DNA of 64,000 bases from Candidatus Nomurabacteria bacterium RIFCSPHIGHO2_02_40_30 (GCA_001785445.1 MFTV01000010.1:19235-83234); one strand, 5' to 3'; counted from the first letter of the stretch, positions 1,503 to 32,545 are shown. Notes: generated by a model from the sequence alone, not told the origin. Translations and numbers: made by a program.

Positions 1503-3158
1503 ATGAAAACAGAAACCAAAAACTGCGCAGACTGTCAAAATAAATTCATAATAGGTGAAGGAGATTTAAAATTATACGAACAAGTAGGGTTGAAGATTTC
1601 TCGCAAGTGTTTCGACTGCCGGACAAAACAGCATTTTATATTTTCTGTCTTCGGCAAATTTCGAAAAGGAGTTTCGGATTTATCTGGTGAGAGCTTAATA
1701 ACAGTTTTCCCAAATAAATCAAGATATCCAGTATATAAATCACATGAATGGTGGAGTGATGCTTGGGATCCGATGACCTACGGACAAGATTACGATCCAA
1801 ATCGCTCGTTTTTCGACCAACTCAAACAACTCCAAGAAAAGGTTCCGCGACCTCATCAAATAGGCCAAAATAACACTAATTGCGATTGGTGTGATGACGC
1901 TTGGAACTGTAAAAATTGCTATCTTTCTCGTTCCATGGATAAGTGTGAAAACTTGAGTTATGCCTATCGGGTGCTTGATAGCAAAGACTCGTTCGATATA
2001 ACTTACAGTTTCAACTTACAAAATTCTTACGACTGTCTTTTTTGCCATGATTCTTTTAATTTAAATTTTTCCGAAAACTCTCGGGATTGCATAGATTCTT
2101 ATTTTCTTTTCGATTGCCGCAATTGTCAAAATTGTTTCATGAGCTACAATTTACGCAACAAGCAATATTGCATTCGTAATAAACAATATTCTAAAGAAGA
2201 ATATAAACAAGAACTCAAAAAAATCAGATTAGATTCACATAAAAATCTAGAAACTCTAAAAAGTGAATTTGAAGACATATTAAAAAAAGAGGCTGTCCAT
2301 AGGGAAAATTTCAATGTCCGAACCAGTAGTTCAGTAGGCAATTATATGACTGATTGCGATAAATGCGTAAATGTTTTCTCTTGGGAAGAATCACAAAATT
2401 GCCGCAATTGCTTGCGAGGTCTTCGCGCAAAGGACTGTATCGATCAAAGTTTTTCGTGGAATACCGAACTATCAGGCAACAATGGAGTCGTAGACGGAGG
2501 ATATCAAATAAAGTACTCCGGCGGATCTTCGACCGGTAGATTCTGTGAATATGTTGATTTGTGCAAAGAGGTTGAGTATTGTTTCGGCTGTGTTGGCCTT
2601 CGCAAAAAGAAATACTGCATTTTAAATAAACAGTACAACAAAGAAGAATATGAAAAATTAAAAGCGCAAATTATTACCAGCATGGAAACGCGAGGCGAGT
2701 ATGGAGACTTTTTTCCTTATTCCATGGGAACCGGCTATTACAATTTATCCAATGGTATAATATATTTCCCCGATACAACCAAAGAAGAAGTTTTAAGAAA
2801 AGGCGGTTATTGGTTAGAAGAAGATCTTACGCAAACTGACGGCATACCATCTTCCAAACTTCCAGATAGTATATTAGATACCTCTCCGGAAATTTCCTCT
2901 CAAGCGTTGATTTGTCCTGAAACACACTATCGATTCAATATTGCAGTTGCAGAATATGAATTTCATAAAAGAAAAGGTTTTGCATTACCCCGCACTCATT
3001 TTGACCAAAGAATCTTAAATCGGATGCGAAAAATGGTTATTAAAAGTTATCCTTATACGTGCATTTACTGCCGAAAAGAGATAAGTGCTTATTATCCGCC
3101 GGAGTGGGAATATAAGAAAATAGCCTGCGAAGAATGTTACAAGCAAAACATAGCCTAA
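1503..3158 (+). CDS. Cysteine-rich multi-zinc-ribbon protein, paralog 1 of 5 (function unknown)
   Basis: 551 aa. N-terminal CxxC..CxxC ribbon, conserved W-W-S-D-x-W-D-P-x-x-Y-G-x-x-Y-D motif, and central Cys/Asn-rich repeats (DCRNCQNCF..NLRNKQYCIxNKQYxKEEY occurs twice). C-terminal CxxC...CxxC. Overall architecture is shared with ORFs at 3184, 4929, 15673 and 38008. Confidence 0.8.
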   Translation: MKTETKNCADCQNKFIIGEGDLKLYEQVGLKISRKCFDCRTKQHFIFSVFGKFRKGVSDLSGESLITVFPNKSRYPVYKSHEWWSDAWDPMTYGQDYDPNRSFFDQLKQLQEKVPRPHQIGQNNTNCDWCDDAWNCKNCYLSRSMDKCENLSYAYRVLDSKDSFDITYSFNLQNSYDCLFCHDSFNLNFSENSRDCIDSYFLFDCRNCQNCFMSYNLRNKQYCIRNKQYSKEEYKQELKKIRLDSHKNLETLKSEFEDILKKEAVHRENFNVRTSSSVGNYMTDCDKCVNVFSWEESQNCRNCLRGLRAKDCIDQSFSWNTELSGNNGVVDGGYQIKYSGGSSTGRFCEYVDLCKEVEYCFGCVGLRKKKYCILNKQYNKEEYEKLKAQIITSMETRGEYGDFFPYSMGTGYYNLSNGIIYFPDTTKEEVLRKGGYWLEEDLTQTDGIPSSKLPDSILDTSPEISSQALICPETHYRFNIAVAEYEFHKRKGFALPRTHFDQRILNRMRKMVIKSYPYTCIYCRKEISAYYPPEWEYKKIACEECYKQNIA

Positions 3159-3183
3159 TACACATTTACGCTATAGCGTATAT

Positions 3184-4872
3184 ATGCAAATGAACCAAGA
3201 AACAAAAAATTGTCAGAATTGTAAAAAAGACTTCACCATAGAGTCGGAGGATTTTAATTTTTACGAAAAGATAAAAGTTCCGCCACCGACAAGGTGTTTT
3301 GAGTGCCGACAACAGAGGCGCTATGCGTGGAGAAATGAACGGACACTATATAGGAGAAATTGTGATTTGTGTAAAAAAAGCACGGTGACGATTTATTCTC
3401 CAAACAAGCCGTACAAAGTTTACTGCAATGAATGCTGGTGGGGCGACGGCTGGGATGCTTCTTCCTATGGGCGAGATTTTGATTTTACTAGGCCATTCTT
3501 CGAGCAATTTGCAGAACTACAGCACGAAGTGCCCCGCATGGCGCTCCTCAATAAAAATAGTGTAAATTCCGACTATACCAACCATTCCGGTGACAACAAA
3601 AATATTTACCTTTCTTTTTCTACGTGGGGGTCTGAAGATGTGATGTATAGTACTTGGGTTTTTTATTCCCGTGACTGCATGGATTCTAGTTTTATTTATG
3701 AAAAAGGTGAACGATTATACGAAATTATTGATTCTCGCACATCCTATCAATGTCAATACGGGCTTTTCTTGAAAGACTGTTCATCTTGTTACTACTGCTA
3801 TGACTGCCGAGGGTGCAACAACTGCTTTATGTCCAGCAACTTGCGAAACAAAAGTTATGTCTTCAAAAATAAACAATATACGAGAGTTGAATATTTGAAA
3901 AAACTAAAGGAATACGATTTATCTTCTCACCTTGTTCGTGAAGGATTAAATAAAGAGTGGAAAGACATGATGCAAAAAGATGCAATTCATCGATATGTGA
4001 TAAGTGAGAGGAATGTGAATTCTACTGGGTCTTTAATTTTTGACTGCAAAAATGTGAAAGATTCTTTTGAAGTTAATAAAGGTGAAGATTCTAAATATCT
4101 GTATTCTACTATCGACCCCAAAAATTGTATGGATTTATATCATGTGGGGCTAAATCTAGAACTGTGTTATGAATTACAGGGTTGTACTCGCACATCCAAT
4201 TGCCAATTCTGCCATCTTTGTTATGACAACATGAACGCAGTGTACTGCGATACTTGCCAAAACAGCCAGAATCTATTCGGCTGTGTCTCAGTGAAAAAGG
4301 GCGAGTATATGATTTTTAATAAAAAGTACTCTAAAGAAGAATATTTGACACTAAAAGAAAAGATTATCGAACATATGAAAAAGACAGGCAGAGAGGAAGG
4401 TGAGTATGGAGAATTTTTCCCACCAAGTATCGCGCCTGTGTATTACAATGAAACACAGGGGAATTTATATATGCCTATGACTAAAGATGAAGTCTTAGCA
4501 AAAGGCTGGCATTGGGAGGACAATGTTCCGAGGACTTTCGGCAAGGAGACAATTAAGAGCGGAGCCATTCCAGACAAAATTGAAGATGTGTCGGACAGCT
4601 ATTTAAGTGAAATTTTTATTTGTATTGATTGTTCTAAAAATTACAATATAACCCAAAACGAGCTTCTTTTTTACCGCAAAGAAATTCTTCCACTCCCTAG
4701 GAAGTGTCCGAATTGTCGCTATAAAAGAAGATTTGATTTACGTCCACCGAGAAAGTTATGGCATAGACAGTGCATGAAAGAGGAGTGTCCAAATGAATTT
4801 GAAACTACTTATGCCCCCGAACGACCTGAAAAAGTGTATTGCGAAAGCTGCTACAACAAAGAAGTTTATTAG
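3184..4872 (+). CDS. Cysteine-rich multi-zinc-ribbon protein, paralog 2 of 5
   Basis: N-terminus QETKNCQNCKKDFTIESEDFNFYEKIKVPPPTRCFECRQQRR and the WWGDGWDASSYGRDFDFTRPFFEQF motif. C-terminus CPNEFETTYAPERPEKVYCESCY has C-x2-C-x17-C-x2-C spacing. Directly tandem to paralogs 1 and 3. Confidence 0.85.
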   Translation: MQMNQETKNCQNCKKDFTIESEDFNFYEKIKVPPPTRCFECRQQRRYAWRNERTLYRRNCDLCKKSTVTIYSPNKPYKVYCNECWWGDGWDASSYGRDFDFTRPFFEQFAELQHEVPRMALLNKNSVNSDYTNHSGDNKNIYLSFSTWGSEDVMYSTWVFYSRDCMDSSFIYEKGERLYEIIDSRTSYQCQYGLFLKDCSSCYYCYDCRGCNNCFMSSNLRNKSYVFKNKQYTRVEYLKKLKEYDLSSHLVREGLNKEWKDMMQKDAIHRYVISERNVNSTGSLIFDCKNVKDSFEVNKGEDSKYLYSTIDPKNCMDLYHVGLNLELCYELQGCTRTSNCQFCHLCYDNMNAVYCDTCQNSQNLFGCVSVKKGEYMIFNKKYSKEEYLTLKEKIIEHMKKTGREEGEYGEFFPPSIAPVYYNETQGNLYMPMTKDEVLAKGWHWEDNVPRTFGKETIKSGAIPDKIEDVSDSYLSEIFICIDCSKNYNITQNELLFYRKEILPLPRKCPNCRYKRRFDLRPPRKLWHRQCMKEECPNEFETTYAPERPEKVYCESCYNKEVY

Positions 4873-4928
4873 TAAACAGCACCAGCTACCATGTACTAGT
4901 ACATAGTAACAATAAATTGTCATTATAT

Positions 4929-6620
4929 ATGCAGAGTGAAACAAAAAATTGCCAAAACTGTAAAGGTGATTTCGTCATCGAACCGGATGATTTTGGGTTT
5001 TATGAACAGATGAAAGTGCCCCCACCAGTATGGTGTCCGCAGTGCAGGCTACTTCGCAGAATGAATTGGTATAGTTATAGAATTCTGTATAAAAGAAAAT
5101 GTGATTTTACCGGTGAGAATATTATTACAATCTATCATCCGGATTTGCCTTACAAAGTTTATAAACAAGATATTTGGTGGAGTGACAAGTGGGACCCAAA
5201 GAGTTATGGCCGGGAGTATGATTTTTCGCGGCCTTTTTTCGAGCAGTTTAAAGAGTTACTAGATGAGGTGCCAAAGGCGGCTCTGCATACAGAATATACT
5301 ACTATGATAAATAGTGAATATTGTAATGCTGCAAGTTACTTGAAAAATAGCTACCTTTGTTTTAAGCACATTACAGGGGAGGATTCTGCCTACACCAACG
5401 TTGTTTCAAATACAAAAGATTCTCTGGATGTAGCTTATTCTTTAGATCCTGAACTTTGCTATGAAATAGTGGACTGCCGTAAATGCTTCCAGGTATTTTT
5501 CTCACAGGATTGTGAAAATTGTCAGAATATTTATTTCTCACGAGATTTAATGAATTGTGGGGATTGTTTTGGCTGTACTTCACTTCGCAATAAAAATTAT
5601 TGCATTTTCAATCAGCAATACACCAGAGAAGAATATTACAAGAAACTTTCGACTTTTGATTTGGGTTCAGTAAAAAATTTACAAGATTTTAGAAAGAAAG
5701 CTTACGAACTTTCTCTGCGTTCTCCCCGAAGGGCATTTCAAGGCAGAAACAATACGAATGTCTCCGGAGACTATGTGTATAATTCAAGAAATGCCAAAAA
5801 TGTCTATTTTATATCCGACTCTGAAAATATAAGGTATACCCAGTTGTTTATAAAAGGAGGAGTACACAATTGTTATGACTTTACAGCTTTTGGTTCTGCC
5901 AGTGAATGGGTTTATGAGGCTACATGGACTGGTCTTAATACTTCCAATGTTAAATTCAGTGTCTGGAATTATCGCAATCACGATACGGAGTATACTTTTG
6001 GTTGTCATGGCAGTGAATACTTGTTTGGCTGTGTCAGTCTGACTAAAGCGTCATATTGTATTTTTAATAAACAATACACGAAAGAAGAATATTTCCCACT
6101 AGTTGAAAAAATTAAAAAACAAATGAATCAGATGCCTTTTGTAGATAGAAGGGGGCTGGAACACAAATATGGCACGCAAATTCCTATTGATCTTTGTCCG
6201 TGGGCATATAACGAGTCCACAGCTTATGAATTTTTTCCAATCACAAAAGAGGAAGCTATCGCTAAAGGTTTTACTTGGCGTGACTCTGACCCGCGGGAAT
6301 ATCTGGACGCTTCTATTACAGTGCCGGAACATATCAAAGATGTAACTGATGAGATTTTGAAAGCGATTTTGAAATGTGTTGCTTGTGGCAAAAATTATCA
6401 AATTATATCCAAAGAATTAGTATTTTTACGCCGTTTTAATTTTCCTATACCGAGCCATTGCCCACTATGTCGAGACCGAGCTCGTATTAAACAATTAAAT
6501 CCTATGGAGACATATGACCGCACGTGTGATAAATGCAGCATATCAATTACTACATCCTATGCCCCAGACCGTCCCGAAATAGTTTACTGCGAAAAATGCT
6601 ATCAGCAGGAAGTTTACTAG
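4929..6620 (+). CDS. Cysteine-rich multi-zinc-ribbon protein, paralog 3 of 5
   Basis: Start moved to ATG 4929 (MQSETKNCQNCKGDF...), which removes the overlap with paralog 2. Carries the same conserved motifs as the family. C-terminus CDKCSISITTSYAPDRPEIVYCEKCYQQEVY. Confidence 0.85.
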   Translation: MQSETKNCQNCKGDFVIEPDDFGFYEQMKVPPPVWCPQCRLLRRMNWYSYRILYKRKCDFTGENIITIYHPDLPYKVYKQDIWWSDKWDPKSYGREYDFSRPFFEQFKELLDEVPKAALHTEYTTMINSEYCNAASYLKNSYLCFKHITGEDSAYTNVVSNTKDSLDVAYSLDPELCYEIVDCRKCFQVFFSQDCENCQNIYFSRDLMNCGDCFGCTSLRNKNYCIFNQQYTREEYYKKLSTFDLGSVKNLQDFRKKAYELSLRSPRRAFQGRNNTNVSGDYVYNSRNAKNVYFISDSENIRYTQLFIKGGVHNCYDFTAFGSASEWVYEATWTGLNTSNVKFSVWNYRNHDTEYTFGCHGSEYLFGCVSLTKASYCIFNKQYTKEEYFPLVEKIKKQMNQMPFVDRRGLEHKYGTQIPIDLCPWAYNESTAYEFFPITKEEAIAKGFTWRDSDPREYLDASITVPEHIKDVTDEILKAILKCVACGKNYQIISKELVFLRRFNFPIPSHCPLCRDRARIKQLNPMETYDRTCDKCSISITTSYAPDRPEIVYCEKCYQQEVY

Positions 6621-7254: not shown

Positions 7255-9168
7255 ATGTCAAAAATTATAGGTATAGACTTGGGTACAACGAATTCGGCAG
7301 TAGCCGTCATTGAGGGTGGCGCGCCGAAAATTATAGAAAATATTGAAGGCGCTCGCACTACGCCGTCAATCGTTTCTGTTGCGAGAAATGGCGACAGGCT
7401 GGTGGGGCTTTTAGCTAAGCGTCAGGCAGTTACCAATCCGGAAAATACAGTCTACGGCATCAAGCGCTTCATGGGACACAATTTTGACGACCCCGAAGTG
7501 CAGAAAGATTTGAAGAATGCGTCCTTCAAAGTTCAGAAATCTGCTAATGGCGGAGTGGAAGTAAAAATTGGCGACAAATGGATGCGTCCGGAAGAAATTT
7601 CGGCCATGATTTTAGGGAAAATAAAAGCAGACGTAGAAGCAAAATTGGGAGAAAAAATTACTGATGCGGTAATCACCGTGCCGGCATATTTTAATGACGC
7701 GCAGAGAAAAGCTACCAAGGATGCCGGTGCTATTGCCGGGCTGGATGTAAAACGCATCATCAACGAGCCTACGGCGGCGGCATTGGCCTATGGATTTAAT
7801 AAAAAGAAAAATGAAAAGATAGTGGTCTATGACTTTGGTGGTGGAACATTTGATGTATCTATTCTTGAAATCGGAGATGACGTGGTGGAAGTAAAGTCTA
7901 CCGATGGCGACAGTCACTTAGGTGGCCGGGACATTGACCACAAGATTATAAATTGGATTGCTGAAGAATTCAAAAAGACTACGGGTGTGGATGTGCGCAA
8001 TGACAAGCTGGCTCTACAGAGGCTCGACGAAGCGGCAGAAAAAGCAAAAATAGAACTTTCTACTTCTATCGAAACCGAAATAAATATTCCATTTATAACT
8101 TCTACATCTGCTGGCCCTCAACATCTCCTCCTTAAGATGACTCGCGCCCAGCTGGAGTCTATTGCTGACGAATATATTTCTCGCTCTATCGAGATAACCA
8201 AGCGCGCTATGACTGCATCCGGCTTCAAGATGGAAGATATGCATGAAATCATCATGGTGGGTGGACAGACTCGCATGCCTAAAATCGTAGACGAGGTTAA
8301 AAAAGTTTTCGGCAAGACTCCGAACTTATCTATCAACCCTGACGAAGTGGTGGCGCTCGGCGCTGCGGTGCAGGCCGGAGTGTTGCAGGGAGATGTGCGG
8401 GATGTTCTGCTCCTAGACGTTATTCCGCTTTCTCTCGGCATCGAAACTCTCGGTGGCGTGGCAACGAAGCTTATAGAAAGAAATACAACTATTCCTTCAA
8501 ACAAGTCGCAAGTATTCTCTACGGCTGCCGACAATCAAACTAGTGTGGAGATTCATATAGTGCAAGGTGAGCGCCCAATGGCTTCCGACAACAAATCTCT
8601 CGGTAGATTTATCCTAGACGGCGTGCCACCGGCTCCACGAGGTATGCCACAAATCGAAGTGTCTTTCGATGTGGATGCGAATGGAATCCTCAACGTGACT
8701 GCCAAAGACAAAGCTTCCGGCAAGACACAGTCTATCAAGATAGAAGCAAGCTCCGGACTAAAAGACGAAGACATCAAAAAAATGCAGGCGGATGCGGAGC
8801 TTCACGCCGAGGAAGATAAAAAGAAAAAGGAAGTTGTGGACGTGAAAAATACTGCCGAGATGATAATTTACACTGCCGAAAAAGCGCTGAAAGACAATGA
8901 AGCGAAAATTCCCGAGGAACTCAAAGATAGCGTAAACGCAAAAATCGCAACATTGCGAACTGCGAAAGATGGAACTGATTCTGAAGCAATCAAAAAAGCC
9001 ACCGAAGAACTTTCTGCCGAAATGTCAAAAATAGGGGAAGCGATAAGCAAAGCCACCGCCGAGGCGGGGCAAGCTGGTGCAGAAGCTCCTGCTGGAGCTT
9101 CTGCTGAAGAGCCAAAGGTCGAACCCAAAGATGCCGACTTCAAGGAAGGCGAAGAACCAAAAGCGTAA
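7255..9168 (+). CDS. dnaK: Chaperone DnaK (Hsp70)
   Basis: Start set at [18 protein letters not shown] (ATG 7255). Classic Hsp70 motifs present: [26 protein letters not shown], and a C-terminal lid with an acidic tail. Confidence 0.95.
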
Positions 9169-9191
9169 ATTATGTTAAAAAAATAAAAAGG

Positions 9192-9236
9192 AATGCCGTT
9201 CACTTGCGATGTTTTGCAATGTGAACGGCATTTTGC
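9192..9236 (+). terminator. Intrinsic terminator after dnaK
   Basis: aatgccgttcac ... gtgaacggcatt forms a 12-bp perfect stem, followed by TTTTG. Confidence 0.6.
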
Positions 9237-9240
9237 TGGC

Positions 9241-9456
9241 TTAGTACCAGCGACTGCTTGATTGATGCGCTCGGTTGGCGGCCTCAATGCGTGCCGCTAC
9301 TGTCGCCGAATCTTCGGCTATGGGAGCGCCTTTGGCTCGTTTGCGACTCACACAAGCCGCATTTCTGAGATCCAACAGTTTCTTTCCTGTTATCAACCCA
9401 GATTTGCGCGCACTTGCATACTTCTGTCCAGCGTTTGGGACTTGCGAATGTGCCAC
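9241..9456 (-). CDS. rpsU: 30S ribosomal protein S21 (GTG start)
   Basis: Basic 71-aa product: ...SARKSGLITGKKLLDLRNAACVSRKRAKGAPIA...ANRAHQSSSRWY. This resembles S21 (SCEKAGVL...ERKRAKASAV...RRTRLY). A GTG start is preceded by AAAGGAG with a 7-nt spacer. The locally GC-rich sequence produces overlapping spurious ORFs on the + strand. Confidence 0.5.
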   Translation of the reverse strand: MAHSQVPNAGQKYASARKSGLITGKKLLDLRNAACVSRKRAKGAPIAEDSATVAARIEAANRAHQSSSRWY

Positions 9457-9552
9457 TTTTAACTCCTTTCGTTCAAAAATTTAACACACACACACAGATA
9501 TATCAAGTATTTTTGATTTGTTGCAATTAAGTTTTTGTGATATCATATAGCT

Positions 9553-9771
9553 ATGAAGAAATTAAACTTACAAAATATAGTTTGGAAAGAGGGGAAATAC
9601 TATGTTTCTCAGTGTTTAAATGTAGATGTCTCTAGTTTTGGCAAGACAAAAAAAGAGGCGCTTAAAAATTTAAGTGAAGCTCTAGATTTGTATTTTGAAG
9701 AAAAAAGTATTCCAAAATTCCAAGAGGTTAAAAGCCCGGAAATATTCCCTATGGCTTTTAGGTATGCCTAA
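9553..9771 (+). CDS. hicB: HicB-like antitoxin (type II TA, UPF0150 fold)
   Basis: 72 aa; ...EGKYYVSQCLNVDVSSFGKTKKEALKNLSEALDLYFEE matches the HicB/UPF0150 pattern (..GGYxAxxPELPGCxxxGDTxEEAxxNxxEAIELYLE). Overlaps the next ORF by 8 nt. Confidence 0.55.
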   Translation: MKKLNLQNIVWKEGKYYVSQCLNVDVSSFGKTKKEALKNLSEALDLYFEEKSIPKFQEVKSPEIFPMAFRYA

Positions 9772-9985
9772 ACTTCTGTCTTCCGCACAAATAATAAGTA
9801 TCATTGAAAGAAAAGGTTTCGTTTTTATTTCCCAAAAAGGAAGCCATATGAAATTCAGAAAATACGGGAATAAAAATCTGACAGTAATTGTTCCAGCCAA
9901 TAAAAAAGAAATTCCTATGGGAACCCTTCACTCAATCATTCGTCAGTCTTCCCTTCTTAAAGAAGATTTTTTACTTTCTAAATAA
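9764..9985 (+). CDS. hicA: HicA-like mRNA interferase toxin (YcfA family)
   Basis: Start at internal ATG 9764 (MPKLLSSAQIISIIERKGFVFISQKGSHMKFRKYGNKNLTVIVPANKKEIPMGTLHSIIRQSSL). This matches HicA (..LLxxGFxxxRQKGSHxxxxHPDGRxxTVPxHxxKDLxxGTLxSIxKQAGL). Confidence 0.6.
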   Translation: MPKLLSSAQIISIIERKGFVFISQKGSHMKFRKYGNKNLTVIVPANKKEIPMGTLHSIIRQSSLLKEDFLLSK

Positions 9986-10090
9986 GTTTTACGTATAAAT
10001 CAGAAAGCATCAGAGAGCAATGCTTCTGATGCTGGTATTTTTCTCGCGATTTTTTAAATAGGGCTCGTGAGATGTACCCTGTTTGGTTCG

Positions 10091-10576
10091 TTAAGCCACG
10101 TTAGAAATTACGTGATTGTAGGAAATACAGAGTTTGCCTAGCTCCCAGTTTTGGGAGTCGCTGAACTCTTGTCTGGCCGCATACAGTTCTGCCGCTCGCT
10201 GTTGAACTTTGTCTTCGGAGACAGTAGCATTCTGAAGCTGATACTCTGCCAAAGCCCAGTCGAACCGTGCCCTGGCTTGTGAGATACATAGAGCAACGTG
10301 TCGAGCTGTGCTCGAAAAGGATTCAGGAGTCACTACGTGACGGTCCCGAGCCAGTCGAAGCGAGCCTTGATAGTAGGACGGCACATAGTATTCGCGTGAT
10401 ACCAACATCCACGCGAAGTGATGATCGACCCGTCGTTCCATTTCTTCTTCGTTTGTGTTCACTCGCCCAGTCTCCGCTCGCCAGCGCCAGATTCCATAGG
10501 CTACGCAAAGCACAAATTGGTCAAAGAACCCCTGTTTAACCGGTTGCTGAATTCTTCCCGATTCACTCAACGACAT
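10091..10576 (-). CDS. Hypothetical protein encoded by a compositionally atypical, GC-rich patch
   Basis: 161-aa ORF with ATG preceded by AAAGGAG (6-nt spacer). Local GC is roughly 50% against roughly 35% in flanking genes. Product is W/R-rich with no family recognised by eye. Confidence 0.5.
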   Translation of the reverse strand: MSLSESGRIQQPVKQGFFDQFVLCVAYGIWRWRAETGRVNTNEEEMERRVDHHFAWMLVSREYYVPSYYQGSLRLARDRHVVTPESFSSTARHVALCISQARARFDWALAEYQLQNATVSEDKVQQRAAELYAARQEFSDSQNWELGKLCISYNHVISNVA

Positions 10577-10697
10577 AAAGATCTCCTTTTAGCTAAACTT
10601 AAACTTCCTGATTTTTATACAACTTTTTCTTTTTTTTTGCAATAGATAACTAGGCTTTTTAGGGTGGCTATTTTTTGCTATAATTTCTAAATGAAAT

Positions 10698-10973
10698 CCC
10701 GTTAGAGATAACTTATGTTTCACTACACTTACATATTAAAAAGTCAAAAGGATGGTAAAATGTATACTGGCTATACAGAGGACCTACGGAAGCGCCTTAG
10801 TCAACATAACAAAGGTTTGTCTAACTACACGAAAGATAGAGGCCCATTTGATTTAATATATTATGAAGCGTGTTTACTGGAAGATAAAGCAAGGTCGAGA
10901 GAATTATTTTTAAAATCGGGAATGGGCAAGCGTTATCTAAAAAATAGATTAGGCGCTTCCTATCTCTAACGGG
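10698..10973. mobile_element. Minimal GIY-YIG-encoding element: 13-bp terminal inverted repeats flanked by a 7-bp direct repeat
   Basis: Left inverted repeat cccgttagagata (10698-10710) is the exact reverse complement of the right one, tatctctaacggg (10961-10973). Both are flanked outward by identical ATGAAAT (10691-10697 and 10974-10980). The downstream ATGAAAT copy is the start codon of the HAD gene. Confidence 0.6.
10715..10969 (+). CDS. GIY-YIG domain nuclease (small stand-alone, UPF0213-like)
   Basis: HYTYILKSQKDGKMYTGYTEDLRKRLSQHNKG...TKDRGPFDLIYYEA matches the GIY-YIG pattern (YxYILxS..G.xYxGxTxDLxxRLxxHN.G...T...GPW.LVYYE). The gene fills an element bounded by 13-bp inverted repeats. 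Confidence 0.75.
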   Translation: MFHYTYILKSQKDGKMYTGYTEDLRKRLSQHNKGLSNYTKDRGPFDLIYYEACLLEDKARSRELFLKSGMGKRYLKNRLGASYL

Positions 10974-11618
10974 ATGAAATATTCTTCGGTGATTTTTGAT
11001 TGGGATGGGACATTGGGGATGACTTTGCATTTGTGGTTTGAAGGATATAAAAGTGAATTGAAAAAGTTAGGGCGCGAATATTCAGACCAAGTTATCATAG
11101 ATGACTTTTTCTATGAGCATAAAAAGACAATGCTGAAATACCCTGATATGGACTTCGATGCTTTTATAGAGAATGTCCGAAAGTATATGATTAGCCATGT
11201 CTCCCATATGAAGCTATACGAAGGAGTACACGAAACATTAGAAAAGTTGCAGGAAAATAATATCAAGCTGGCGCTGGTTTCTTCAAGCCCTAGAAAATTA
11301 CTGGAAGAAGTTCTTGAACTCACAGATTTATCTAAATTTTTCTCTGCCATTTCTGGATTCGACGATATTATGAAACACAAACCCGACCCTGAACCATTTT
11401 TGTATATTATAGAAGTTGCAAAGCTAGACCCAAAAAATACTATTATCATAGGGGATTCACCTCATGATATTAGTGCTGCTAAAGCCGCTGGCATAGACTC
11501 CTGTCTTTTTTTACCGGAAGAAAACAAAATTTTTTATGACTTTGAAAAATTAAAACAAACCAACCCAACATATTGCGTGGAAACTCTGAAAGAATTCGCC
11601 AATATCGTTATAAGTTAG
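10974..11618 (+). CDS. HAD-superfamily hydrolase (phosphatase / phosphoglucomutase-like subfamily IA)
   Basis: Motif I VIFDWDGTL; motif III/IV ...KHKPDPEPF...IIIGDSPHDISAAKAAGI. Confidence 0.8.
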   Translation: MKYSSVIFDWDGTLGMTLHLWFEGYKSELKKLGREYSDQVIIDDFFYEHKKTMLKYPDMDFDAFIENVRKYMISHVSHMKLYEGVHETLEKLQENNIKLALVSSSPRKLLEEVLELTDLSKFFSAISGFDDIMKHKPDPEPFLYIIEVAKLDPKNTIIIGDSPHDISAAKAAGIDSCLFLPEENKIFYDFEKLKQTNPTYCVETLKEFANIVIS

Positions 11619-11648
11619 AAAGCACTAGAAGTGTGCTTTCTAGTGCTT
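11619..11648. terminator. Bidirectional hairpin between the HAD gene and a minus-strand small ORF
   Basis: aagcactagaa / ttctagtgctt forms an 11-bp perfect stem with a 7-nt loop, immediately after the HAD stop. It also lies 3' of the minus-strand ORF 11653-11835. Confidence 0.5.
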
Positions 11649-11652
11649 GATT

Positions 11653-11835
11653 TCACGTTTTTAATATTTCTTTGCCGTTGAATTCCACAATCAAGCGGGA
11701 ATTCTCAGCCCTGAAGTGGAGAACTTCTCCTCCTCCCAATATGAAGCAGATATTGCCATTTTCATTCACACTTATTCCTTCAATGGTTTTCCACAATATC
11801 ACTTTTTCAAGCTCTTTCTGTTTCTCTTCTTGCAT
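11653..11835 (-). CDS. Small hypothetical protein (60 aa)
   Basis: ATG preceded by GGGAGG with a 6-nt spacer. Product looks beta-rich (NGNICFILGGGEVLHFRAENSRLIVEFNGKEI). Divergent from the ATPase gene at 11905. Confidence 0.4.
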   Translation of the reverse strand: MQEEKQKELEKVILWKTIEGISVNENGNICFILGGGEVLHFRAENSRLIVEFNGKEILKT

Positions 11836-11904
11836 AGGTACCTCCCATTTATAATTATAACGTATTTATTTTGAAAAAATCTATAAAAAAGGTACAATTA
11901 ACAA

Positions 11905-13920
11905 ATGAGTGATTTACCGGAAATACCTCAAAATAAAGAGCTGACGTATCTTGGCGTCAGTACCTATCGGGACAAAAATGTTCTTTTTGGTATCAAGCGC
12001 AAAGACAGACGCCAGCATGTTTATATTCTTGGTAAGTCCGGCACAGGTAAGTCTGCCTTGATGTTTAACATGATTATTCAAAACATTCAGAACGGCGAGG
12101 GTGTTTGTATGGTAGACCCGCACGGCGAAAATGTGGAAGCGATTCTCTCCGCTATCCCGCCGCATCGCATGAAAGATGTGATTTATTTCAATCCGGCTGA
12201 TGCCGACCACCATATCGGCTTTAATGTTTTAGAACTTATTGACCCGCAGTACAAGCATTTGGTGGCTTCGGGGCTCATGGGTATTTTTACTAAAATTTGG
12301 GCCAATGCTTGGAGCGCCCGAATGGAATATATTTTGAACAATTGCATCCTAGCATTGCTTGACACTCCGGGGACGACGCTTCTCGGCATTCCGAGAATGT
12401 TAGTGGACAAAGATTATCGCCAAAAAATAATTTCTAACTTGAAAGACCCGGTCATCAAGGCTTTCTGGGTGCACGAGTATGAAGCCTGGCAGGACAAATT
12501 TAGGAATGAAGCTATCGCGCCGATTCAGAACAAAGTCGGGCAATTTCTCTCCACTTCTATAATCAGGAATGTCGTCGGTCAGAGCAAGAGCACGATAAAT
12601 ATTTTCGATATGATGAATGAGGGCAAAATTTTTCTGGTGAATGTTTCTAAGGGTCGCATTGGTGAAGACAATTCCGGTCTCTTGGGCGGCATGATTATTA
12701 CCAAAATTCAGCTAGCCGCTATGGAGCGGGTGCGCGTGCCGGAAGAGTCAAGACGCGATTTCTACCTATATGTGGATGAATTCCAGAACTTTGTGACAGA
12801 TGCTTTTGCCGGCATCTTATCCGAAGCTCGCAAGTACAGGCTGAACTTAACCGTGGCGCACCAGTACACCGCCCAGCTTGTCTCCGACAAAAGTACTGCG
12901 GTGCGCGATGCGGTTTTTGGCAACGTGGGCACGATGATAGTTTTTCGGGTTGGCGCTGACGATGCGGAATTTCTAGAAAAAGAATTTGACCCCGAGTTTA
13001 CTCCACAGGATTTAGTCAACCTGCCGAATTACAAAGCCTACCTGAAATTAATGATAGACGGTGTGACCTCCCGTCCTTTTTCCGCTAAAACTTTGCCGCC
13101 CATGGTCAAGTCGGGCAATAAAGAAGTTGAAGAAGAAGTGATTAAATCTTCCCGTGATTTGTATTGTCGGCCGAAAGCAGTAGTAGAAAGAGAGATTAAT
13201 GATTGGAGTGGAATGTCGCTCGGTGATGATAATGCTCACTCTTCTTCAACTTTGGAGAAGTTTCCAGCTATATGTTCAATGTGTAAAAAAGAAACTACGG
13301 TGCCATTCAAGCCAGAGCCAGGCAGAGCGGTGTATTGCAAAGAGTGTATAGCTAAAATAAAGTCAGGTGAAGTAAAAGTAGAGAAAGGTTCTGAAAATCA
13401 AATTAAATATGATGAATCTAAATTTTTCAAACCATTGGCTGACCTAGGCATAGAATTCGAACAGAAAGATAAAGGCGGGCACAACGGAGAAGACAGGCAT
13501 CCAGAGAGAGGCTTTACTCATACAGCAGCGCACACGAAAAGCCAACCCGGAATACTGGGAGCTATTAAAAAAGTATTCAATAAAACTCCTGCCCCAGTTG
13601 AGATTCCCAAAAAGCCAAAACCAGAAAATCTAGCTTTGAAAGAAGTTTTAGGTAAAATAAATGAACCAGCCTCGACTAGCGCGAGTCTAGGCGGGCCAGT
13701 TTCACTCGACACCCTAAAAGACAAAATCAAAGAAACAAATAAAAATTTAACACATTCTAAAGACCGTTCCGCCAGCCCAGAAGAAATGCATAAATTAAAA
13801 GATTTAATTATTGAGAAAATGGAAAAAAATGAAGATAAAAAAGTTTCAGAACCTCCTTTGACACCAGGCAACATAAAAGAAGTGCCGGAAGATGTCCTCC
13901 GAAAAATTTTAGAACAGTAA
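11905..13920 (+). CDS. TraD/TraG/VirD4-family (T4SS coupling-protein-like) P-loop ATPase with C-terminal DksA/TraR-like C4 zinc finger and charged tail
   Basis: Walker A YILGKSGTGKS, Walker B FYLYVDEFQNF, and a TraG-D_C-like region (SEARKYRLNLTVAHQYTAQL...FGNVGTMIVFRVGADD). Near the C-terminus CSMC-x17-CKEC with ...PEPGRAVYCKEC, then a long K/E-rich tail. Confidence 0.75.
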   Translation: MSDLPEIPQNKELTYLGVSTYRDKNVLFGIKRKDRRQHVYILGKSGTGKSALMFNMIIQNIQNGEGVCMVDPHGENVEAILSAIPPHRMKDVIYFNPADADHHIGFNVLELIDPQYKHLVASGLMGIFTKIWANAWSARMEYILNNCILALLDTPGTTLLGIPRMLVDKDYRQKIISNLKDPVIKAFWVHEYEAWQDKFRNEAIAPIQNKVGQFLSTSIIRNVVGQSKSTINIFDMMNEGKIFLVNVSKGRIGEDNSGLLGGMIITKIQLAAMERVRVPEESRRDFYLYVDEFQNFVTDAFAGILSEARKYRLNLTVAHQYTAQLVSDKSTAVRDAVFGNVGTMIVFRVGADDAEFLEKEFDPEFTPQDLVNLPNYKAYLKLMIDGVTSRPFSAKTLPPMVKSGNKEVEEEVIKSSRDLYCRPKAVVEREINDWSGMSLGDDNAHSSSTLEKFPAICSMCKKETTVPFKPEPGRAVYCKECIAKIKSGEVKVEKGSENQIKYDESKFFKPLADLGIEFEQKDKGGHNGEDRHPERGFTHTAAHTKSQPGILGAIKKVFNKTPAPVEIPKKPKPENLALKEVLGKINEPASTSASLGGPVSLDTLKDKIKETNKNLTHSKDRSASPEEMHKLKDLIIEKMEKNEDKKVSEPPLTPGNIKEVPEDVLRKILEQ

Positions 13921-13922
13921 GA

Positions 13923-15683
13923 ATGAAGATAGAAACCCAAAATTTATCATGGCTAGATATACCAAAGTCTATTTGGTATTTTCTAGAAAAAGATAAAAAG
14001 AAGTCTCTTTTTTATTTTATCGTCATTGTCATAGCATTTTTTTATGATCTCGTTCCCGCATATATTGTAGGTAAAATGGTTGATTTTTTTACTGGCTATA
14101 CACAGGGTCAATCACTTAGTCTTTTTTATTTTTATGTAGTTTTTGTAGGTGTTACTTGGATAGTAGCCTCTCTCATACGCTTAAAAAGCCATAAAGTTTT
14201 AAGTATCGCCAGTAAAAAAGCTCGTACCCGAGCACGTGTTTGGGGATTTGAGCGCTTAACCGAGTTTTCTCTCGGGTGGCATAATAAAGAAAATACAGGA
14301 AACAAATTTCAGCGAATTTTTACTGGAGCAGAAGCTATTGAAAAATGGGTATTAATATTAAGAAGAGATTTGCTTCGGATTATGGCTAACTCTGTCGGGG
14401 TGTTAATATTTTTTTTATTTCTAGACTTTAAATTTATTTCTTTAGTGCTTATATATGCGTTACTTTTTTTGTATGTCGAATTTTCGTTCGGTAAGAAAAT
14501 ACTTAGATTAAGTAATGATTTTAATCTATCTAATCAATCGGCAGGAGGGGTTTACATAGAAAGCGCAAACAATATGCTTGCTGTCAAAGCATTAGGTGCG
14601 AAAGATGGCTTGGTTTCTCGTGTTAAAGATAAAGAAACTATTTCCCGTGATCTTTCGATACAAAAAACAACTATTAGTAATTTCAAGTGGCAACTGTTGC
14701 AGTTTATAAACGGCTTTTCAATAAGTATTTTTCTTTTAATTGCTGGTTTTGCCAGTATTTCTAATGCTATAACAATTGGTATGGTTTTAGTAATATTCAC
14801 TTACTTCTCTAAACTGCAAACTTCATTAAGTGAAATAAGTAACTTACACATGGATGTAATAGATCTTCGTTCAGATCTTGGCAACATGATGCCAATATTT
14901 AAGGAGACAGAATTTATTAAGACAGGCAATGAAAGTTTTCCGAAAGATTGGCAAAAAGTTGAAATTAAAAATGGAGTTATGGATTATGGCTCTGGGCAAA
15001 TGGGGTTAAAAGATTTTAATTTAGTGTTAAAAAGGAATACCAAAACCGGTATTGCCGGGTTATCTGGCTCCGGCAAGTCTACGTTGGCAAAAATTATTTT
15101 AGGCTTATACGGCTTGAAAACAGGGACTTTTAAAGTAGGCAATAAAAATTATTATTCAATTGCGCACAACGAAACCTTGAGCAATATTAGTGTGGTTCTG
15201 CAAGAGACAGAACTTTTTAATCTTTCTTTGCGGGACAACATCACTATGATGCGCGTGGAAGACAAAGAACTTCTGGATATAGCAGTAGAAATTTCCAATC
15301 TTGATGAAGTTATAGGCCGTTTACCGGAGGGGCTCGATGCTATGATAGGTGAAAAAGGGTACATGCTCTCCGGCGGGGAGAGGCAACGTCTCGGCATTGC
15401 CCGTGCGATTTATAAAAATGCGCCAATTATAATTCTCGACGAAGCCACGTCTTCGCTTGATTCGGAGACGGAAGGCAAAATAATGGAGAAACTTTTAGGA
15501 GAGTACGGTAAAGACAAAACTTTCTTAATCATTGCGCACCGCTTGGGTACGCTTAAATATACTGACAACATTGCCGTGATGGAAAGAGGGAAAGTAGTGG
15601 AAGAAGGAAGTTATGATAAGTTAATGAACAACCAGAGCTCTGTCTTTTATAGAATGAATAAAGAAAAAAAAGATGAAAAATAG
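13923..15683 (+). CDS. ABC transporter, fused permease/ATP-binding protein (exporter type)
   Basis: N-terminal 6-TM domain. Nucleotide-binding domain has Walker A GLSGSGKST, signature LSGGERQRLGIARA, and Walker B IIILDEATSSLD. The 3' end overlaps the next gene by 11 nt. Confidence 0.85.
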   Translation: MKIETQNLSWLDIPKSIWYFLEKDKKKSLFYFIVIVIAFFYDLVPAYIVGKMVDFFTGYTQGQSLSLFYFYVVFVGVTWIVASLIRLKSHKVLSIASKKARTRARVWGFERLTEFSLGWHNKENTGNKFQRIFTGAEAIEKWVLILRRDLLRIMANSVGVLIFFLFLDFKFISLVLIYALLFLYVEFSFGKKILRLSNDFNLSNQSAGGVYIESANNMLAVKALGAKDGLVSRVKDKETISRDLSIQKTTISNFKWQLLQFINGFSISIFLLIAGFASISNAITIGMVLVIFTYFSKLQTSLSEISNLHMDVIDLRSDLGNMMPIFKETEFIKTGNESFPKDWQKVEIKNGVMDYGSGQMGLKDFNLVLKRNTKTGIAGLSGSGKSTLAKIILGLYGLKTGTFKVGNKNYYSIAHNETLSNISVVLQETELFNLSLRDNITMMRVEDKELLDIAVEISNLDEVIGRLPEGLDAMIGEKGYMLSGGERQRLGIARAIYKNAPIIILDEATSSLDSETEGKIMEKLLGEYGKDKTFLIIAHRLGTLKYTDNIAVMERGKVVEEGSYDKLMNNQSSVFYRMNKEKKDEK

Positions 15684-17451
15684 CGAAATAAAAAATTGCC
15701 AAAATTGCAAGAAAGATTTCACCGTTGAGCCGGAGGATTTTAATTTTTATGAAAAAATCAAAGTTCCTCCGCCAACTTTTTGCCCAGAATGCAGGCTGGT
15801 GCGGCGAATGCTGTGGCGTAATGAACGCTCGCTTTTCAAAAGGTCTTGCGCCAAAACGAGCAAACAAATAATCACCATGTTTCATCCGGATGCTAAGGTG
15901 GTGGTATATGACCATGACACATGGTGGAGTGACCAGTGGGAACCGACCGATTATGGAAAAGATTATGATTTTTCTAAACCGTTTTTTGAGCAATTCAAAG
16001 AATTACTTTACCGAACATCATTAGCGAATTTAGGAAATTCCAATAACGTTGGCAGTCCTTACGGCAATCACAATGCCGACTGCAAGTATTGCTATTTATT
16101 ATACGCTTCTTTCAACGTTGAACGAACACATTATTCTTATGGCGCGGTTAGATTGAAAGATTGCATGGATATGTATGTCTGTTTGCATTCCGAATTGTGT
16201 TATAACGATATTGTCAGCACTGATTTGTATAAAACTCATTTTTCTTATGACGCGGACGAGTCTGTTAATTGCTTTTTTCTGAAGTATTCTAAAAATATGC
16301 AAGACAGTATTGGCTGTATAAATTTGAGAAATAAAAGTCATTGCATTTTAAATGTAGAATATTCAAAAGAAGAGTACGAGAAAAGGAAAAAAGAGTTTGA
16401 TTTCGGCAGTTATAAAGTTTTGTTTGAATTTGAAAATTCTTTTAACAGACTTGTCCTTAATGTTCCGTACCGATATGCGCACATCATGAAATCTAAAGAT
16501 GTTACCGGAGACAATATTATAAACTCTAAAAATGTAAAGAATTGTTTTGATATTTATCAAAATGTGGAAGATTCAAAGTATTTAATTCATTGCTTGGACG
16601 CCAAGGACTGTTATGACTTATATGGCGGTGGCGCGGTGGCATCTTTAATGTACGAAGGAGTGGATATTGGAAAAGAATCGTCCAAGCAATTATTTTCCAT
16701 ACTCACTCATACTTGTTTCCAAACTTATTATACCTACATGTGCTATAACTCAAAAAATCTTTTTGGCTGTATCGGCTTGCGGGGGAAGCAGTACTGCATT
16801 TTGAATAAGCAGTATTCCAAAGAAAAATATTTTGAACTATTGCCGAAAATTATTGAGCATATGAATACCATGCCCTATAAAGATAAAAAAGGACTAATTT
16901 ATAAATATGGAGAATTTTTCCCAAGCGAATTATCGCCTTTTGCTTATAACGAGACAATTGCCCAAGAATATTTTACAAAAACTAAAGAAGAAATTGTTAA
17001 AGACGGATATACTTATAGAACTTCACCGGCAAAGGATTATCAAGCGACTATTTTGAACAAAGATTTACCAGATCATATCAAAGATGTTTCTGATTCTATT
17101 CTTAAAGAGGTGATTGCTTGTCCTAACGATGGCAAAGAACTGACTCAATGTACCAAAGCTTATCGTATTATTAAATCCGAGTTAGAATTTCTAAAAAATA
17201 ATAACATTGCTTTGCCGCGCTATTGCCCCAATTGCCGTCACTATAAAAGACTCAAGCAAAGAAATCCATTCAAACTCTGGCAGGCTAAATGTCAGTGCGC
17301 TGGGGCTAACTCTCAAAATAAAAAATACAAAAACACAATAAAACATACTCATGGAACCAAACCTTGTCCGAACGAATTTGAAACAAGCTATGCTCCTGAC
17401 CGACCGGAAATTATTTATTGTGAAAAATGTTACCAGCAGGAAGTTTATTGA
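15673..17451 (+). CDS. Cysteine-rich multi-zinc-ribbon protein, paralog 4 of 5
   Basis: MKNSEIKNCQNCKKDFTVEPEDFNFYEKIKVPPPTFCPECRLVRR..., the WWSDQWEPTDYGKDYDFSKPFFEQF motif, and C-terminus CPNEFETSYAPDRPEIIYCEKCYQQEVY. The ATG sits inside the ABC exporter stop region, which suggests translational coupling. Confidence 0.85.
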   Translation: MKNSEIKNCQNCKKDFTVEPEDFNFYEKIKVPPPTFCPECRLVRRMLWRNERSLFKRSCAKTSKQIITMFHPDAKVVVYDHDTWWSDQWEPTDYGKDYDFSKPFFEQFKELLYRTSLANLGNSNNVGSPYGNHNADCKYCYLLYASFNVERTHYSYGAVRLKDCMDMYVCLHSELCYNDIVSTDLYKTHFSYDADESVNCFFLKYSKNMQDSIGCINLRNKSHCILNVEYSKEEYEKRKKEFDFGSYKVLFEFENSFNRLVLNVPYRYAHIMKSKDVTGDNIINSKNVKNCFDIYQNVEDSKYLIHCLDAKDCYDLYGGGAVASLMYEGVDIGKESSKQLFSILTHTCFQTYYTYMCYNSKNLFGCIGLRGKQYCILNKQYSKEKYFELLPKIIEHMNTMPYKDKKGLIYKYGEFFPSELSPFAYNETIAQEYFTKTKEEIVKDGYTYRTSPAKDYQATILNKDLPDHIKDVSDSILKEVIACPNDGKELTQCTKAYRIIKSELEFLKNNNIALPRYCPNCRHYKRLKQRNPFKLWQAKCQCAGANSQNKKYKNTIKHTHGTKPCPNEFETSYAPDRPEIIYCEKCYQQEVY

Positions 17452-31631: not shown

Positions 31632-31967
31632 ATGGATTTATTAAAGAAAAAATGTGTGCCGTGTGAGGGCAGGGGAATAAAACCTTTTGATAGGGCTGAA
31701 GCGCAAGACTATGTGGATGAGTCTCACGGCTGGACCCTAAGTGAAGATGCAAAGGAAATTTCCAAAGAATATAAGTTCCAAGATTTTATCGGAGCAATAA
31801 ACTTCGTAAATAAAGTAGCCGACATTGCCGAAATGGAAGGCCACCATCCGGACATCCAAGTACACTATAACAAAGTTCTCCTAGAACTCTCTACTCACGC
31901 CATCGGCGGCCTCTCCGAAAATGATTTCATCGTAGCTACCAAAGTGGACGCGCATAATAGGTTTTAG
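31632..31967 (+). CDS. Pterin-4a-carbinolamine dehydratase (PCD/DCoH)
   Basis: W..S....I.KEYKF.DF..A..FVNKVA..AE..GHHPD....YN.V.....TH...GL...D is the PCD signature. Confidence 0.75.
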   Translation: MDLLKKKCVPCEGRGIKPFDRAEAQDYVDESHGWTLSEDAKEISKEYKFQDFIGAINFVNKVADIAEMEGHHPDIQVHYNKVLLELSTHAIGGLSENDFIVATKVDAHNRF

Positions 31968-32545
31968 CTAGGGAACTTGCTTTTGAAGACGAGGTCGGAG
32001 AGGGGCTTTCTGTCGCTTGGATTTTCGCGGGCGCGCAGAGGCTCGGGCAAATCTGCGACATTGCCATGTTTGCCGACGGCTATCATCATCTCAACGGTGT
32101 AGTTTTCTGGGATGCCAAGCTTTTCTTTGGCCAGAGCGTAATCAAAACCTTCCATGCCATGCGCTACGAGGTTCATAGTGGATGCCTGTAAAGCGAAGTT
32201 TTCCCATGCGGCACCGGTGTCGAATGAATGAGTGCGAGACACTGTGCCTTTATAATGTAGGTCATGTGAAATGGTCACAACAAGAGCGCTTGCATTTTTG
32301 CACCAGTCTTGGTTGAAGGGGATTAAGAGTGAAAACAAAACATCAAACTCCGGCGTGCCACGCATAGCATATATGAACCTCCATGGCTGCATGTTGCTAG
32401 CTGAAGGCGCCCAACGCGCAGCCTCAAAGAGGGTCATAAGCTCTTCCTCACTTATACTTTCCCCCGACATTGCTCGTGGCGAATACCTCTCCAAAAATAT
32501 GTCATCTATCTCGTATTCCGTTTTTCTTCCGTTCACAGTTTTCAT
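31964..32545 (-). CDS. Nitroreductase-family protein
   Basis: RYSPRAMSGESISEEELMTLFEAARWAPSASNMQPWRFIY is the nitroreductase N-terminal signature. The roughly 190-aa length fits. Confidence 0.75.
   Translation of the reverse strand: MKTVNGRKTEYEIDDIFLERYSPRAMSGESISEEELMTLFEAARWAPSASNMQPWRFIYAMRGTPEFDVLFSLLIPFNQDWCKNASALVVTISHDLHYKGTVSRTHSFDTGAAWENFALQASTMNLVAHGMEGFDYALAKEKLGIPENYTVEMMIAVGKHGNVADLPEPLRARENPSDRKPLSDLVFKSKFPS

Follow-up and report, generated by a model that had tools for sequence, protein, structure and literature searches.

Why should a gene that has been kept under purifying selection between bacterial lineages be cut, again and again, by small deletions within a single clonal population? 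This question is raised by a gene for a protein of 161 amino acids (aa), which lies on the minus strand at positions 10,091 to 10,576 of a stretch of 64,000 nucleotides (hereafter the window) from Candidatus Nomurabacteria bacterium RIFCSPHIGHO2_02_40_30 (GCA_001785445.1, MFTV01000010.1:19235-83234). The explanation that we favor, as somewhat the most probable, is that of a dispensable, acquired gene which is eroding by slippage at a hotspot of short repeats and hairpins.

Deletion Alleles in a Clonal Population

Five loci of 12.4 kb (L004, L010, L011, L012, and L027) are 100% identical to the window save for one deletion each, which always falls inside the 161-aa gene. Altogether, seven distinct deletion alleles of this gene were found (Table 1), on a background that is essentially clonal, with 0-1 differences per 6.8-12.4 kb. 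The intact allele is present on 76 contigs and each deletion allele on a single one, apart from the 95-bp deletion of the protein P0006, which is on no contig on record and is reproduced exactly by rebuilding a deletion between two 9-bp TTCGACTGG repeats (repeat family D3). No amino-acid substitution variants of the gene are known in this population; the neighboring genes have a few.

Six of the alleles fall in a hotspot, in which five of the deletions have their left end within 10347-10359, at the motif TTCGACTGGCTCG, and their right ends at successive downstream copies of CTC, GCTC, GCTCG, or TTCGACTGG. Junction microhomology ranges from 0 to 9 nt across the deletion alleles, and the larger of two small palindromes in the region (10301-10315) is lost wholly or partly in the 45-, 53-, 57-, and 95-bp deletions. 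Three of the six hotspot alleles have a shifted frame, so that the reading frame is not being preserved. The protein of the 61-bp deletion allele (P0001) is called from a TTG start.

Short direct repeats in the open reading frame (ORF) are not in excess of those in the surrounding 12.4 kb, given that it holds one of the 20 pairs of at least 9 nt, and 54 5-mer pairs against 88 expected. The first positions of two short contigs are 10300 (L019) and 10247 (L020), as would be expected if assemblies break at a site that is heterogeneous in the population.

The same contigs may suggest that the deletions are artifacts of assembly, curation, or library preparation at the palindromes, in a gene that is otherwise ordinary and intact. 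This would agree with the single contig of each deletion allele against the 76 of the intact one, with the template switching that palindromes can cause, and with the origin of P0006, and of deletion variants in the neighboring genes, in a read-level source known as SRC. On the other hand, the alleles come from the sources of different groups (NCBI genome bins, JGI assemblies, ENA assemblies, and SRC), a systematic artifact should repeat one deletion rather than produce seven different ones, and there is no other error in the 12.4 kb of the same contigs. A de Bruijn assembler would need more than 0-9 nt of microhomology to introduce a deletion that is absent from the reads. Given the diversity of the sources, the differences among the alleles, and junction homologies far below the k-mer length, an artifact is unlikely.

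Table 1. Positions, in the window, of the 161-aa gene, its deletion alleles, and the features that surround it.
Feature	Position	Strand	Remarks
161-aa protein-coding gene	10091..10576	minus	intact ORF, ATG start at 10574-10576, stop codon within the coordinates
Shine-Dalgarno AAAGGAG	10583..10589	minus	read from the sequence; 6-nt spacer ATCTTT, then ATG
Deletion hotspot, 104 bp	10256..10359	minus	codons ~73-107; six alleles; DNA alignments and junction mapping
10-bp deletion (L011)	10310-10320		junction homology 1 nt; out of frame
21-bp deletion (L027)	10327-10350		junction CTC; in frame
45-bp deletion (L004)	10302-10351		junction GCTCG; in frame
53-bp deletion (L012)	10300-10352		no junction homology; out of frame
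57-bp deletion (L005)	10291-10351		junction GCTC; in frame
95-bp deletion (P0006)	10256-10359		junction TTCGACTGG; out of frame
61-bp deletion (L010)	10552-10614	minus	junction AA; removes Shine-Dalgarno, ATG, and first 8-9 codons
Palindrome GTCAC-GTA-GTGAC	10329..10341		5-bp stem; hairpin in the centroid DNA fold; removed by the 21-bp deletion between CTC repeats
Palindrome TCGAGC-ACA-GCTCGA	10301..10315		6-bp stem; the 10-bp deletion takes one arm
Strain-variable slot, ~2.7 kb	9169..11904		from dnaK to the VirD4-like ATPase gene; comparison with L028 and L029
dnaK	ends at 9168
hicB-like ORF	9553-9771
hicA	9764-9985		PF07927, expectation value (E) = 1.8e-15
Hairpin	10006..10033		between the convergent hicA and 161-aa gene; terminator-like on the plus strand in a terminator scan
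GIY-YIG ORF, 84 aa	10715-10969		PF01541, E = 1.4e-16
dnaJ	19116-20213

Probable Slippage at Repeats and Palindromes

The hotspot encodes a linker between the two halves of the protein, in which the in-frame losses of 7, 15, and 19 residues fall. Given that one end of the deletions is fixed, that short repeats are found at most of the junctions, and that palindromes lie between them, slippage or microhomology is the likely mutational mechanism.

In the linker DNA, the two small palindromes are surrounded by several short GCTC/TCGAC repeats, and either slipped-strand mispairing or microhomology-mediated joining would connect the common donor site, TTCGACTGGCTCG, to one of several downstream acceptor sites. 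The outcome would be a nested deletion series, with half of the hotspot deletions destroying the reading frame. A single double-strand-break site for all of the hotspot deletions was ruled out, given that the 21-bp and 10-bp deletions do not overlap.

Studies of lacI in Escherichia coli and of palindrome deletion in plasmids have reportedly found hotspots that result from slipped-strand mispairing between short direct repeats flanking palindromes. The alleles described here are similar in their junctions at CTC, GCTC, GCTCG, and TTCGACTGG repeats, in the small palindromes of the deleted segments, and in the nested series with one common end. They differ in that the stems have 5-6 bp and form no significant predicted structure, that two of the junctions have a microhomology of 0-1 nt, and that the deletions are seen in environmental assemblies rather than in a controlled mutation assay.

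A Protein-Coding Gene of a Very Small Family

The original prediction for this gene, which was made from the sequence alone, had described an intact ORF with AAAGGAG-N6-ATG and a product rich in W, R, and Y. The first point is confirmed by the ORF list and by a direct reading of the sequence, and the second by the presence of both of the peptides it had quoted (WRWRAETGR and YYVPSYYQG), with 5 W, 15 R, and 8 Y in the 161 residues. The product, which has an isoelectric point of 6.5 (acidic to neutral) and no transmembrane segment (maximum Kyte-Doolittle 19-residue average of 0.77), is predicted to be a soluble, mostly helical, cytoplasmic protein, with the all-helical prediction coming from AlphaFold models that have a predicted local distance difference test (pLDDT) score of 42 (single-sequence) and 50 (7-sequence).

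Protein searches covered ~15 billion proteins, through a word-indexed search over 5.8 billion clusters and an exhaustive phmmer search over 1.84 billion representatives. The homologs are confined to three lineages, i.e., this Candidatus Nomurabacteria population, a second lineage with a guanine-cytosine (GC) content of 46-49% (L001, L002, L006, and L023-L026; hereafter lineage 2), and Candidatus Doudnabacteria (L003 and L007-L009). Two of the three belong to the bacteria of the candidate phyla radiation (CPR), and at least one contig is labeled as groundwater. A profile search of the 5.8 billion clusters yielded no further family member, the phmmer search yielded no other Nomurabacteria copy, and a phmmer match to a 919-aa repeat protein (P0010), aligned over ~30 residues, was treated as spurious. 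The sequences thus far retrieved place the 161-aa protein in a very small orphan family of three lineages.

The prediction that the product would have no recognizable family is in line with the comparisons with family databases. In Pfam-A, no family was found at E <= 0.1 for the window protein, and none at E <= 10 for the representatives of all three lineages. NCBIfam gave just a 12-residue chance match (16 bits against a cut-off of 35), PADLOC-DB 2.0, the 2023 library of known anti-phage defense, gave no family at E <= 1, and PHROGs gave no phage family. A scan of IMG/VR viral contigs had no confirmed match, tblastn found nothing in phage records and only a chance-level match in plasmid records (E = 0.6), and the PDB sequence profile search returned a single match, at E = 1.3. 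Homology to a housekeeping protein, which would have spoken against the prediction, did not appear in the wide search.

The homolog of lineage 2 (L001, L002, and L006) is intact, with 164 aa, and shares 69% of its protein and 70% of its DNA sequence with the 161-aa gene. The differences are distributed as 36, 27, and 84 over codon positions 1, 2, and 3, with the frame open across 164 codons, and the substitution rates are dN = 0.20 and dS = 4.2 (saturated), i.e., a dN/dS of ~0.05.

These values bear on the possibility, which the prediction had itself envisaged, that the frame is spurious and the GC-rich stretch a structured non-coding RNA or plain non-coding DNA. Structured RNAs in AT-rich genomes are classically recognized by islands of high GC content, and several of the database homologs of the protein are frame-shifted, which would both fit this alternative. 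The substitutions over the codon positions and the open frame argue against it, however, as do the canonical Shine-Dalgarno sequence, the fold energy of the mRNA, which is like that of shuffles (z = -0.32), and the absence of any Rfam match in the region, even at E = 10. Given the codon-position pattern, together with the lack of both excess folding and an Rfam match, this alternative is rejected as extremely improbable, and the comparison of sequences identifies the ORF as a protein-coding gene under long-term purifying selection.

Two Halves and Their Linker

The protein has two conserved helical halves (~aa 10-68 and 95-161), which are joined by the poorly conserved linker (~aa 69-94). In the comparison with lineage 2, dN is 0.21 in the N-half, 0.32 in the linker, and 0.14 in the C-half, and over the comparisons it is 0.32-1.13 in the linker against 0.14-0.28 in the two halves. 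No internal duplication, with the N-half related to the C-half, was found.

Every Doudnabacteria contig has the gene interrupted in this linker, which results in a 79-aa ORF for the N-half and an 84- to 92-aa ORF for the C-half. The TTG start of the 84-aa ORF overlaps the stop codon of the N-half (TTGA), and the two halves are equally conserved. The existence of two separable modules, a recent frameshift, and a product of -1 frameshifting would all fit this arrangement. Given that the linker is the least conserved part of the protein, that the in-frame deletions fall there, and that the Doudnabacteria gene is split there, it would appear to be dispensable.

Foreign Composition and a Variable Slot

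With a GC content of 0.506, the 161-aa ORF is at the top of the 51 long ORFs of the window (mean 0.39, standard deviation (sd) 0.04). Its GC content at third codon positions (GC3) is 0.51, against a mean of 0.376 (sd 0.065) for the ORFs of the window, with 0.59 and 0.42 at positions 1 and 2. The original prediction had contrasted ~50% with a background of ~35%, of which the former holds and the latter is slightly overstated, given that the whole window has 0.39 and that dnaK and the VirD4-like gene have 0.45-0.52 locally; the immediate flanks of the gene have 0.30-0.35.

The codon-usage and tetranucleotide comparisons proposed with the prediction, when run against the window, indicate that the gene is compositionally foreign. 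It ranks first of 262 chunks of 486 nt in tetranucleotide deviation, and only one of the 48 ORFs compared has a less host-like codon usage, the log-likelihood ratio of the 161-aa gene being ~1.9 sd below that of the host genes. The homologs in the other two lineages have a GC content of 0.50-0.52, within hosts of 0.46-0.49.

The position of the gene, between a hicBA pair and a GIY-YIG gene, is as had been predicted, according to the Pfam matches and coordinates of Table 1. It is part of a slot of seven small genes (a 71-aa GC-rich ORF, hicB, hicA, the 161-aa gene, the GIY-YIG gene, a HAD hydrolase, and a 60-aa ORF). Two relatives (L028 and L029), with a DnaK identity of at least 90%, match the window across dnaK and then again from the VirD4-like gene, and the slot holds a 333-aa AT-rich ORF in L028 and a 0.4-kb GC-rich stretch in L029.

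The three sequences have the gene order PaaX-like, dnaK, and VirD4-like ATPase with a zinc finger in common. In L028 and L029, an ABC transporter and Zn-ribbon proteins come next, in a somewhat different order in each, and are followed in L029 by a second VirD4-like gene and dnaJ. Given that the relatives keep the rest of the order and differ directly after dnaK, only ~9169-11904 is variable. The insertion block that had been thought to split dnaK from dnaJ is thus a strain-variable position over this one 2.7-kb slot, while the rest of the interval is conserved synteny, which corrects the gene map.

The neighbors of the homologs are membrane proteins, an Rce1-like protease, and NUDIX in lineage 2, and an HNH protein, a weak nucleotidyltransferase-like protein, and Fpg in Doudnabacteria, with no neighboring gene shared across the three lineages. 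A tRNA suspected by eye next to the Doudnabacteria copy was not found by ARAGORN. Flanking repeats that might mark an insertion boundary of the 161-aa gene alone amount to a 10-nt AT-rich inverted repeat (10101-10110 and 10681-10690), which was judged to be due to chance.

The atypical composition, the absence of the gene from the slot in L028 and L029, and its homologs in unrelated lineages are all features expected of horizontal acquisition. Given that the slot is variable, the neighbors are unrelated, and the GC content matches that of the other hosts, the sequences support the prediction of horizontal transfer, and the gene is probably accessory cargo that came from a donor of higher GC content; the direction and the time of this transfer are likewise putative.

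A native, vertically inherited Nomurabacteria gene, in which the GC content would reflect the amino-acid composition and the rarity would reflect poor sampling, is very improbable. The codons for A, R, E, and G do raise the GC content at positions 1 and 2, and native genes such as dnaK attain 0.45. However, the GC3 is also above the host mean, close relatives are without the gene at the slot, no other Nomurabacteria copy was found among the 1.84 billion representatives, and the homologs occur only in other lineages and in different neighborhoods.

The hicBA genes form a HicAB type II module that adjoins the 161-aa gene, is convergent with it, and has a terminator hairpin in common with it. The hairpin has a U-rich tail on the minus strand, as read from the sequence, and may be a bidirectional terminator. 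Unlike such a module, the 161-aa gene is on the opposite strand and bears no sequence relationship to it, and there is no hicBA beside the homologs in lineage 2 or Doudnabacteria; hicBA is a neighbor of the gene, not a component. A literature search on such modules in Nomurabacteria yielded general papers on HicAB only.

Probably Dispensable or Costly in the Present Host

The deletion pattern marks the 161-aa gene as dispensable or costly in its host, and we take it to be dispensable and possibly costly. Strain-specific ORFan accessory genes in variable islets are lost through the deletional bias of bacteria. The 161-aa gene is similar to these in its atypical composition, its patchy distribution, its slot that differs between close relatives, its lack of a detectable family, and its inactivation by small deletions rather than substitutions. 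It is unlike them in that the decay has been caught in progress within one clonal natural population, with seven alleles that are concentrated in ~100 bp, and in the strong long-term purifying selection between lineages, which implies that the gene is not junk.

The kind of object is thus familiar, an ORFan in a variable slot that is decaying by deletion, and the added value lies in the deletion hotspot, which the original prediction had missed and which offers a clean natural example of how slippage at short repeats can erode or silence a newly acquired gene. Its general significance is limited, as the genomes of candidate phyla are full of hypothetical proteins.

Several points weigh against the erosion of an acquired gene by slippage. 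Most of the variant loci were retrieved through protein variants of the 161-aa gene itself, so that the impression that only this gene varies is partly built in, and an unbiased set, obtained via the neighboring 71-aa ORF, has one deletion in ~9 full-length copies. Read-level SRC assemblies also have occasional deletions in the neighboring genes, in the HAD gene (P0027) and in the PaaX-like gene (P0043). The hairpins of the hotspot are short, and its 101-nt region folds marginally better than shuffles (z = -1.27), while a common donor site does not account for two of the deletions, the one of 61 bp at the start codon and the one of 10 bp. As for the origin, no close donor sequence is known, the nearest homolog being 69% identical, and the high GC content may partly reflect a protein rich in A, R, and E, given that certain native genes have 0.45-0.49.

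A costly or toxic product, the loss of which is positively selected, could also account for the alleles. This would be either a single-gene abortive-infection or defense effector, or a protein resembling a fused toxin-antitoxin with a harmful C-module. Such a product would fit seven independent disrupting or shortening deletions with no substitution variants on a clonal background, and in particular the 61-bp deletion: as it falls beyond the hotspot and eliminates both the Shine-Dalgarno sequence and the ATG, the common target would be the gene itself rather than a site in the DNA. The ORF offers no more opportunity for microhomology than the 12.4 kb around it, which show no deletions, half of the hotspot alleles shift the reading frame, and every frameshift allele retains the N-half and loses the C-half.

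The neighbors may be read in the same way, with hicBA and a GIY-YIG nuclease here, and HNH and weak nucleotidyltransferase-like proteins in Doudnabacteria, where the TTGA overlap of the two ORFs is like that of a coupled two-gene module. A further lead, and only a lead, is a conserved R-x4-H (ERRVDHHF) that resembles the motif of HEPN RNases.

Against this, neither PADLOC, PHROGs, nor Pfam, including its HEPN and toxin families at E <= 10, has a match, there is no conserved partner or common neighborhood across the lineages, and the intact allele dominates. Lineage 2 retains an intact gene with substitutions only, the strong long-term purifying selection shows it to be useful in some setting, and the three in-frame hotspot deletions may keep the function. 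Selection against a costly product is thus doubtful, although it is the strongest rival of erosion by slippage. If selection, and not mutability, drives the deletions, the gene would be a possible instance of a new function in conflict or addiction, for which few systems are known in this bacterial group.

A fused two-module system is a more specific and rather improbable version, in which an N-terminal neutralizing or sensing module would be joined to a C-terminal harmful effector, and Nomurabacteria would escape its cost by deletion, with the linker DNA as a built-in, high-rate off-switch. The deletions would then cut off the C-module, shorten the linker, or remove the start codon, and the Doudnabacteria version would consist of two ORFs coupled in translation through the TTGA overlap. 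A comparable logic is found in fused toxin-antitoxins and single-gene abortive-infection proteins.

Clues to Function

HEPN-domain RNase toxins have an Rx4-6H motif, are all-helical, and are often part of toxin-antitoxin or abortive-infection modules. The 161-aa protein is likewise small and predicted to be all-helical, with an R-x4-H motif (R48 and H53; ERRVDHHF, RERLGDHHF, and YRRADHHF) that is invariant across the three lineages, although three sequences are weak evidence. It also has a toxin-antitoxin and nuclease neighborhood and, in one lineage, a weak nucleotidyltransferase-like neighbor.

It is unlike these toxins in that no HEPN family is among the Pfam matches of the three lineage representatives at E <= 10, the motif falls in predicted helix 2 of the N-terminal half rather than in the usual C-terminal helix, and there is no conserved MNT partner. 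No HEPN protein is among the matches listed for the two poor structure models, either, and the resemblance of R48-x4-H53 to the HEPN signature may serve as a lead only.

The top Foldseek matches of these models in the PDB are ferritin-like four-helix bundles, at E >= 1 and template modeling scores of ~0.24. A ferritin-like identity is not supported by these values, nor by the sequence, which has no ExxH motif. A conserved adjacent partner gene, as in type II toxin-antitoxins, was not found either, as the neighbors differ in all three lineages. The original prediction went too far in its reading of the context as one of defense or addiction cargo, a role that is putative at most, with no match in PADLOC or PHROGs, no constant partner, and no hicBA near the homologs elsewhere. 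Our best guess, held with low confidence, is a two-module protein related to conflict or addiction rather than a metabolic or housekeeping one.

Other Features of the Slot and the Window

A second GC-rich stretch is found directly after dnaK (9170-9480), where a 71-aa ORF (9241-9456, minus strand) is preceded by AAAGGAG-N6-GTG and has no homolog outside the same population. This stretch folds much more stably than shuffles on both strands (z = -5.1 and -5.25), which results in part from the dnaK terminator hairpin (9192-9232), and has no Rfam match; it is either an orphan protein gene or a structured RNA. Paralogy between the 71-aa ORF and the C-half of the 161-aa protein is not supported (hhalign probability 0.55%), despite a BLASTP match at E = 0.03, a score that is equaled by 12 of 2000 shuffles.

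The 71-aa ORF and hicBA form a block that is matched by two short metagenome contigs, both of which pass into unrelated sequence: at 100% by contig L021 (window 9168-9980), which diverges exactly at the dnaK stop codon, and at 99.7% by contig L022 (window 9040-9718), which diverges inside hicB into a glycosyltransferase-like ORF. Either the block is present in a second genomic context or these contigs are chimeric. In L029, the slot after dnaK (11915-12310) has ~400 nt of 54.5% GC, with a called 131-aa ORF of implausible translation and no Rfam match; the stretch may represent a gene in decay or a structured RNA that has escaped annotation.

The GIY-YIG ORF is bracketed almost exactly by a perfect 15-nt inverted repeat, ATCCCGTTAGAGATA / TATCTCTAACGGGAT, at 10696-10710 and 10961-10975, an arrangement of sequences that would fit a miniature mobile cassette. 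This gene has more single-residue population variants than its neighbors, with four full-length substitution variants beside the main allele.

Beyond the slot, the dnaK-dnaJ interval encodes two VirD4/TraG-like coupling-protein ATPases (11905-13920 and 17598-19100), which are syntenic in related Nomurabacteria, the first of them with a treble-clef zinc finger (PF23477). Several paralogous cysteine-pair-rich (Zn-ribbon-like) proteins of ~550-590 aa, which have no Pfam domain, are encoded in the window (1503-6620 and 15673-17451) as well as in L028 and L029. Two of these share the C-terminal motif APDRPEI(V/I)YCEKCYQQEVY, and the group flanks the dnaK and VirD4-like genes, with similar ORFs at the same positions in the relatives.

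Finally, two adjacent ORFs on the minus strand (31964-32545 and 32542-33066) have opposite extremes of GC3, at 0.54 and 0.15, respectively. No ORF of the window is less host-like in codon usage than the former, and the pair may be another foreign insert.

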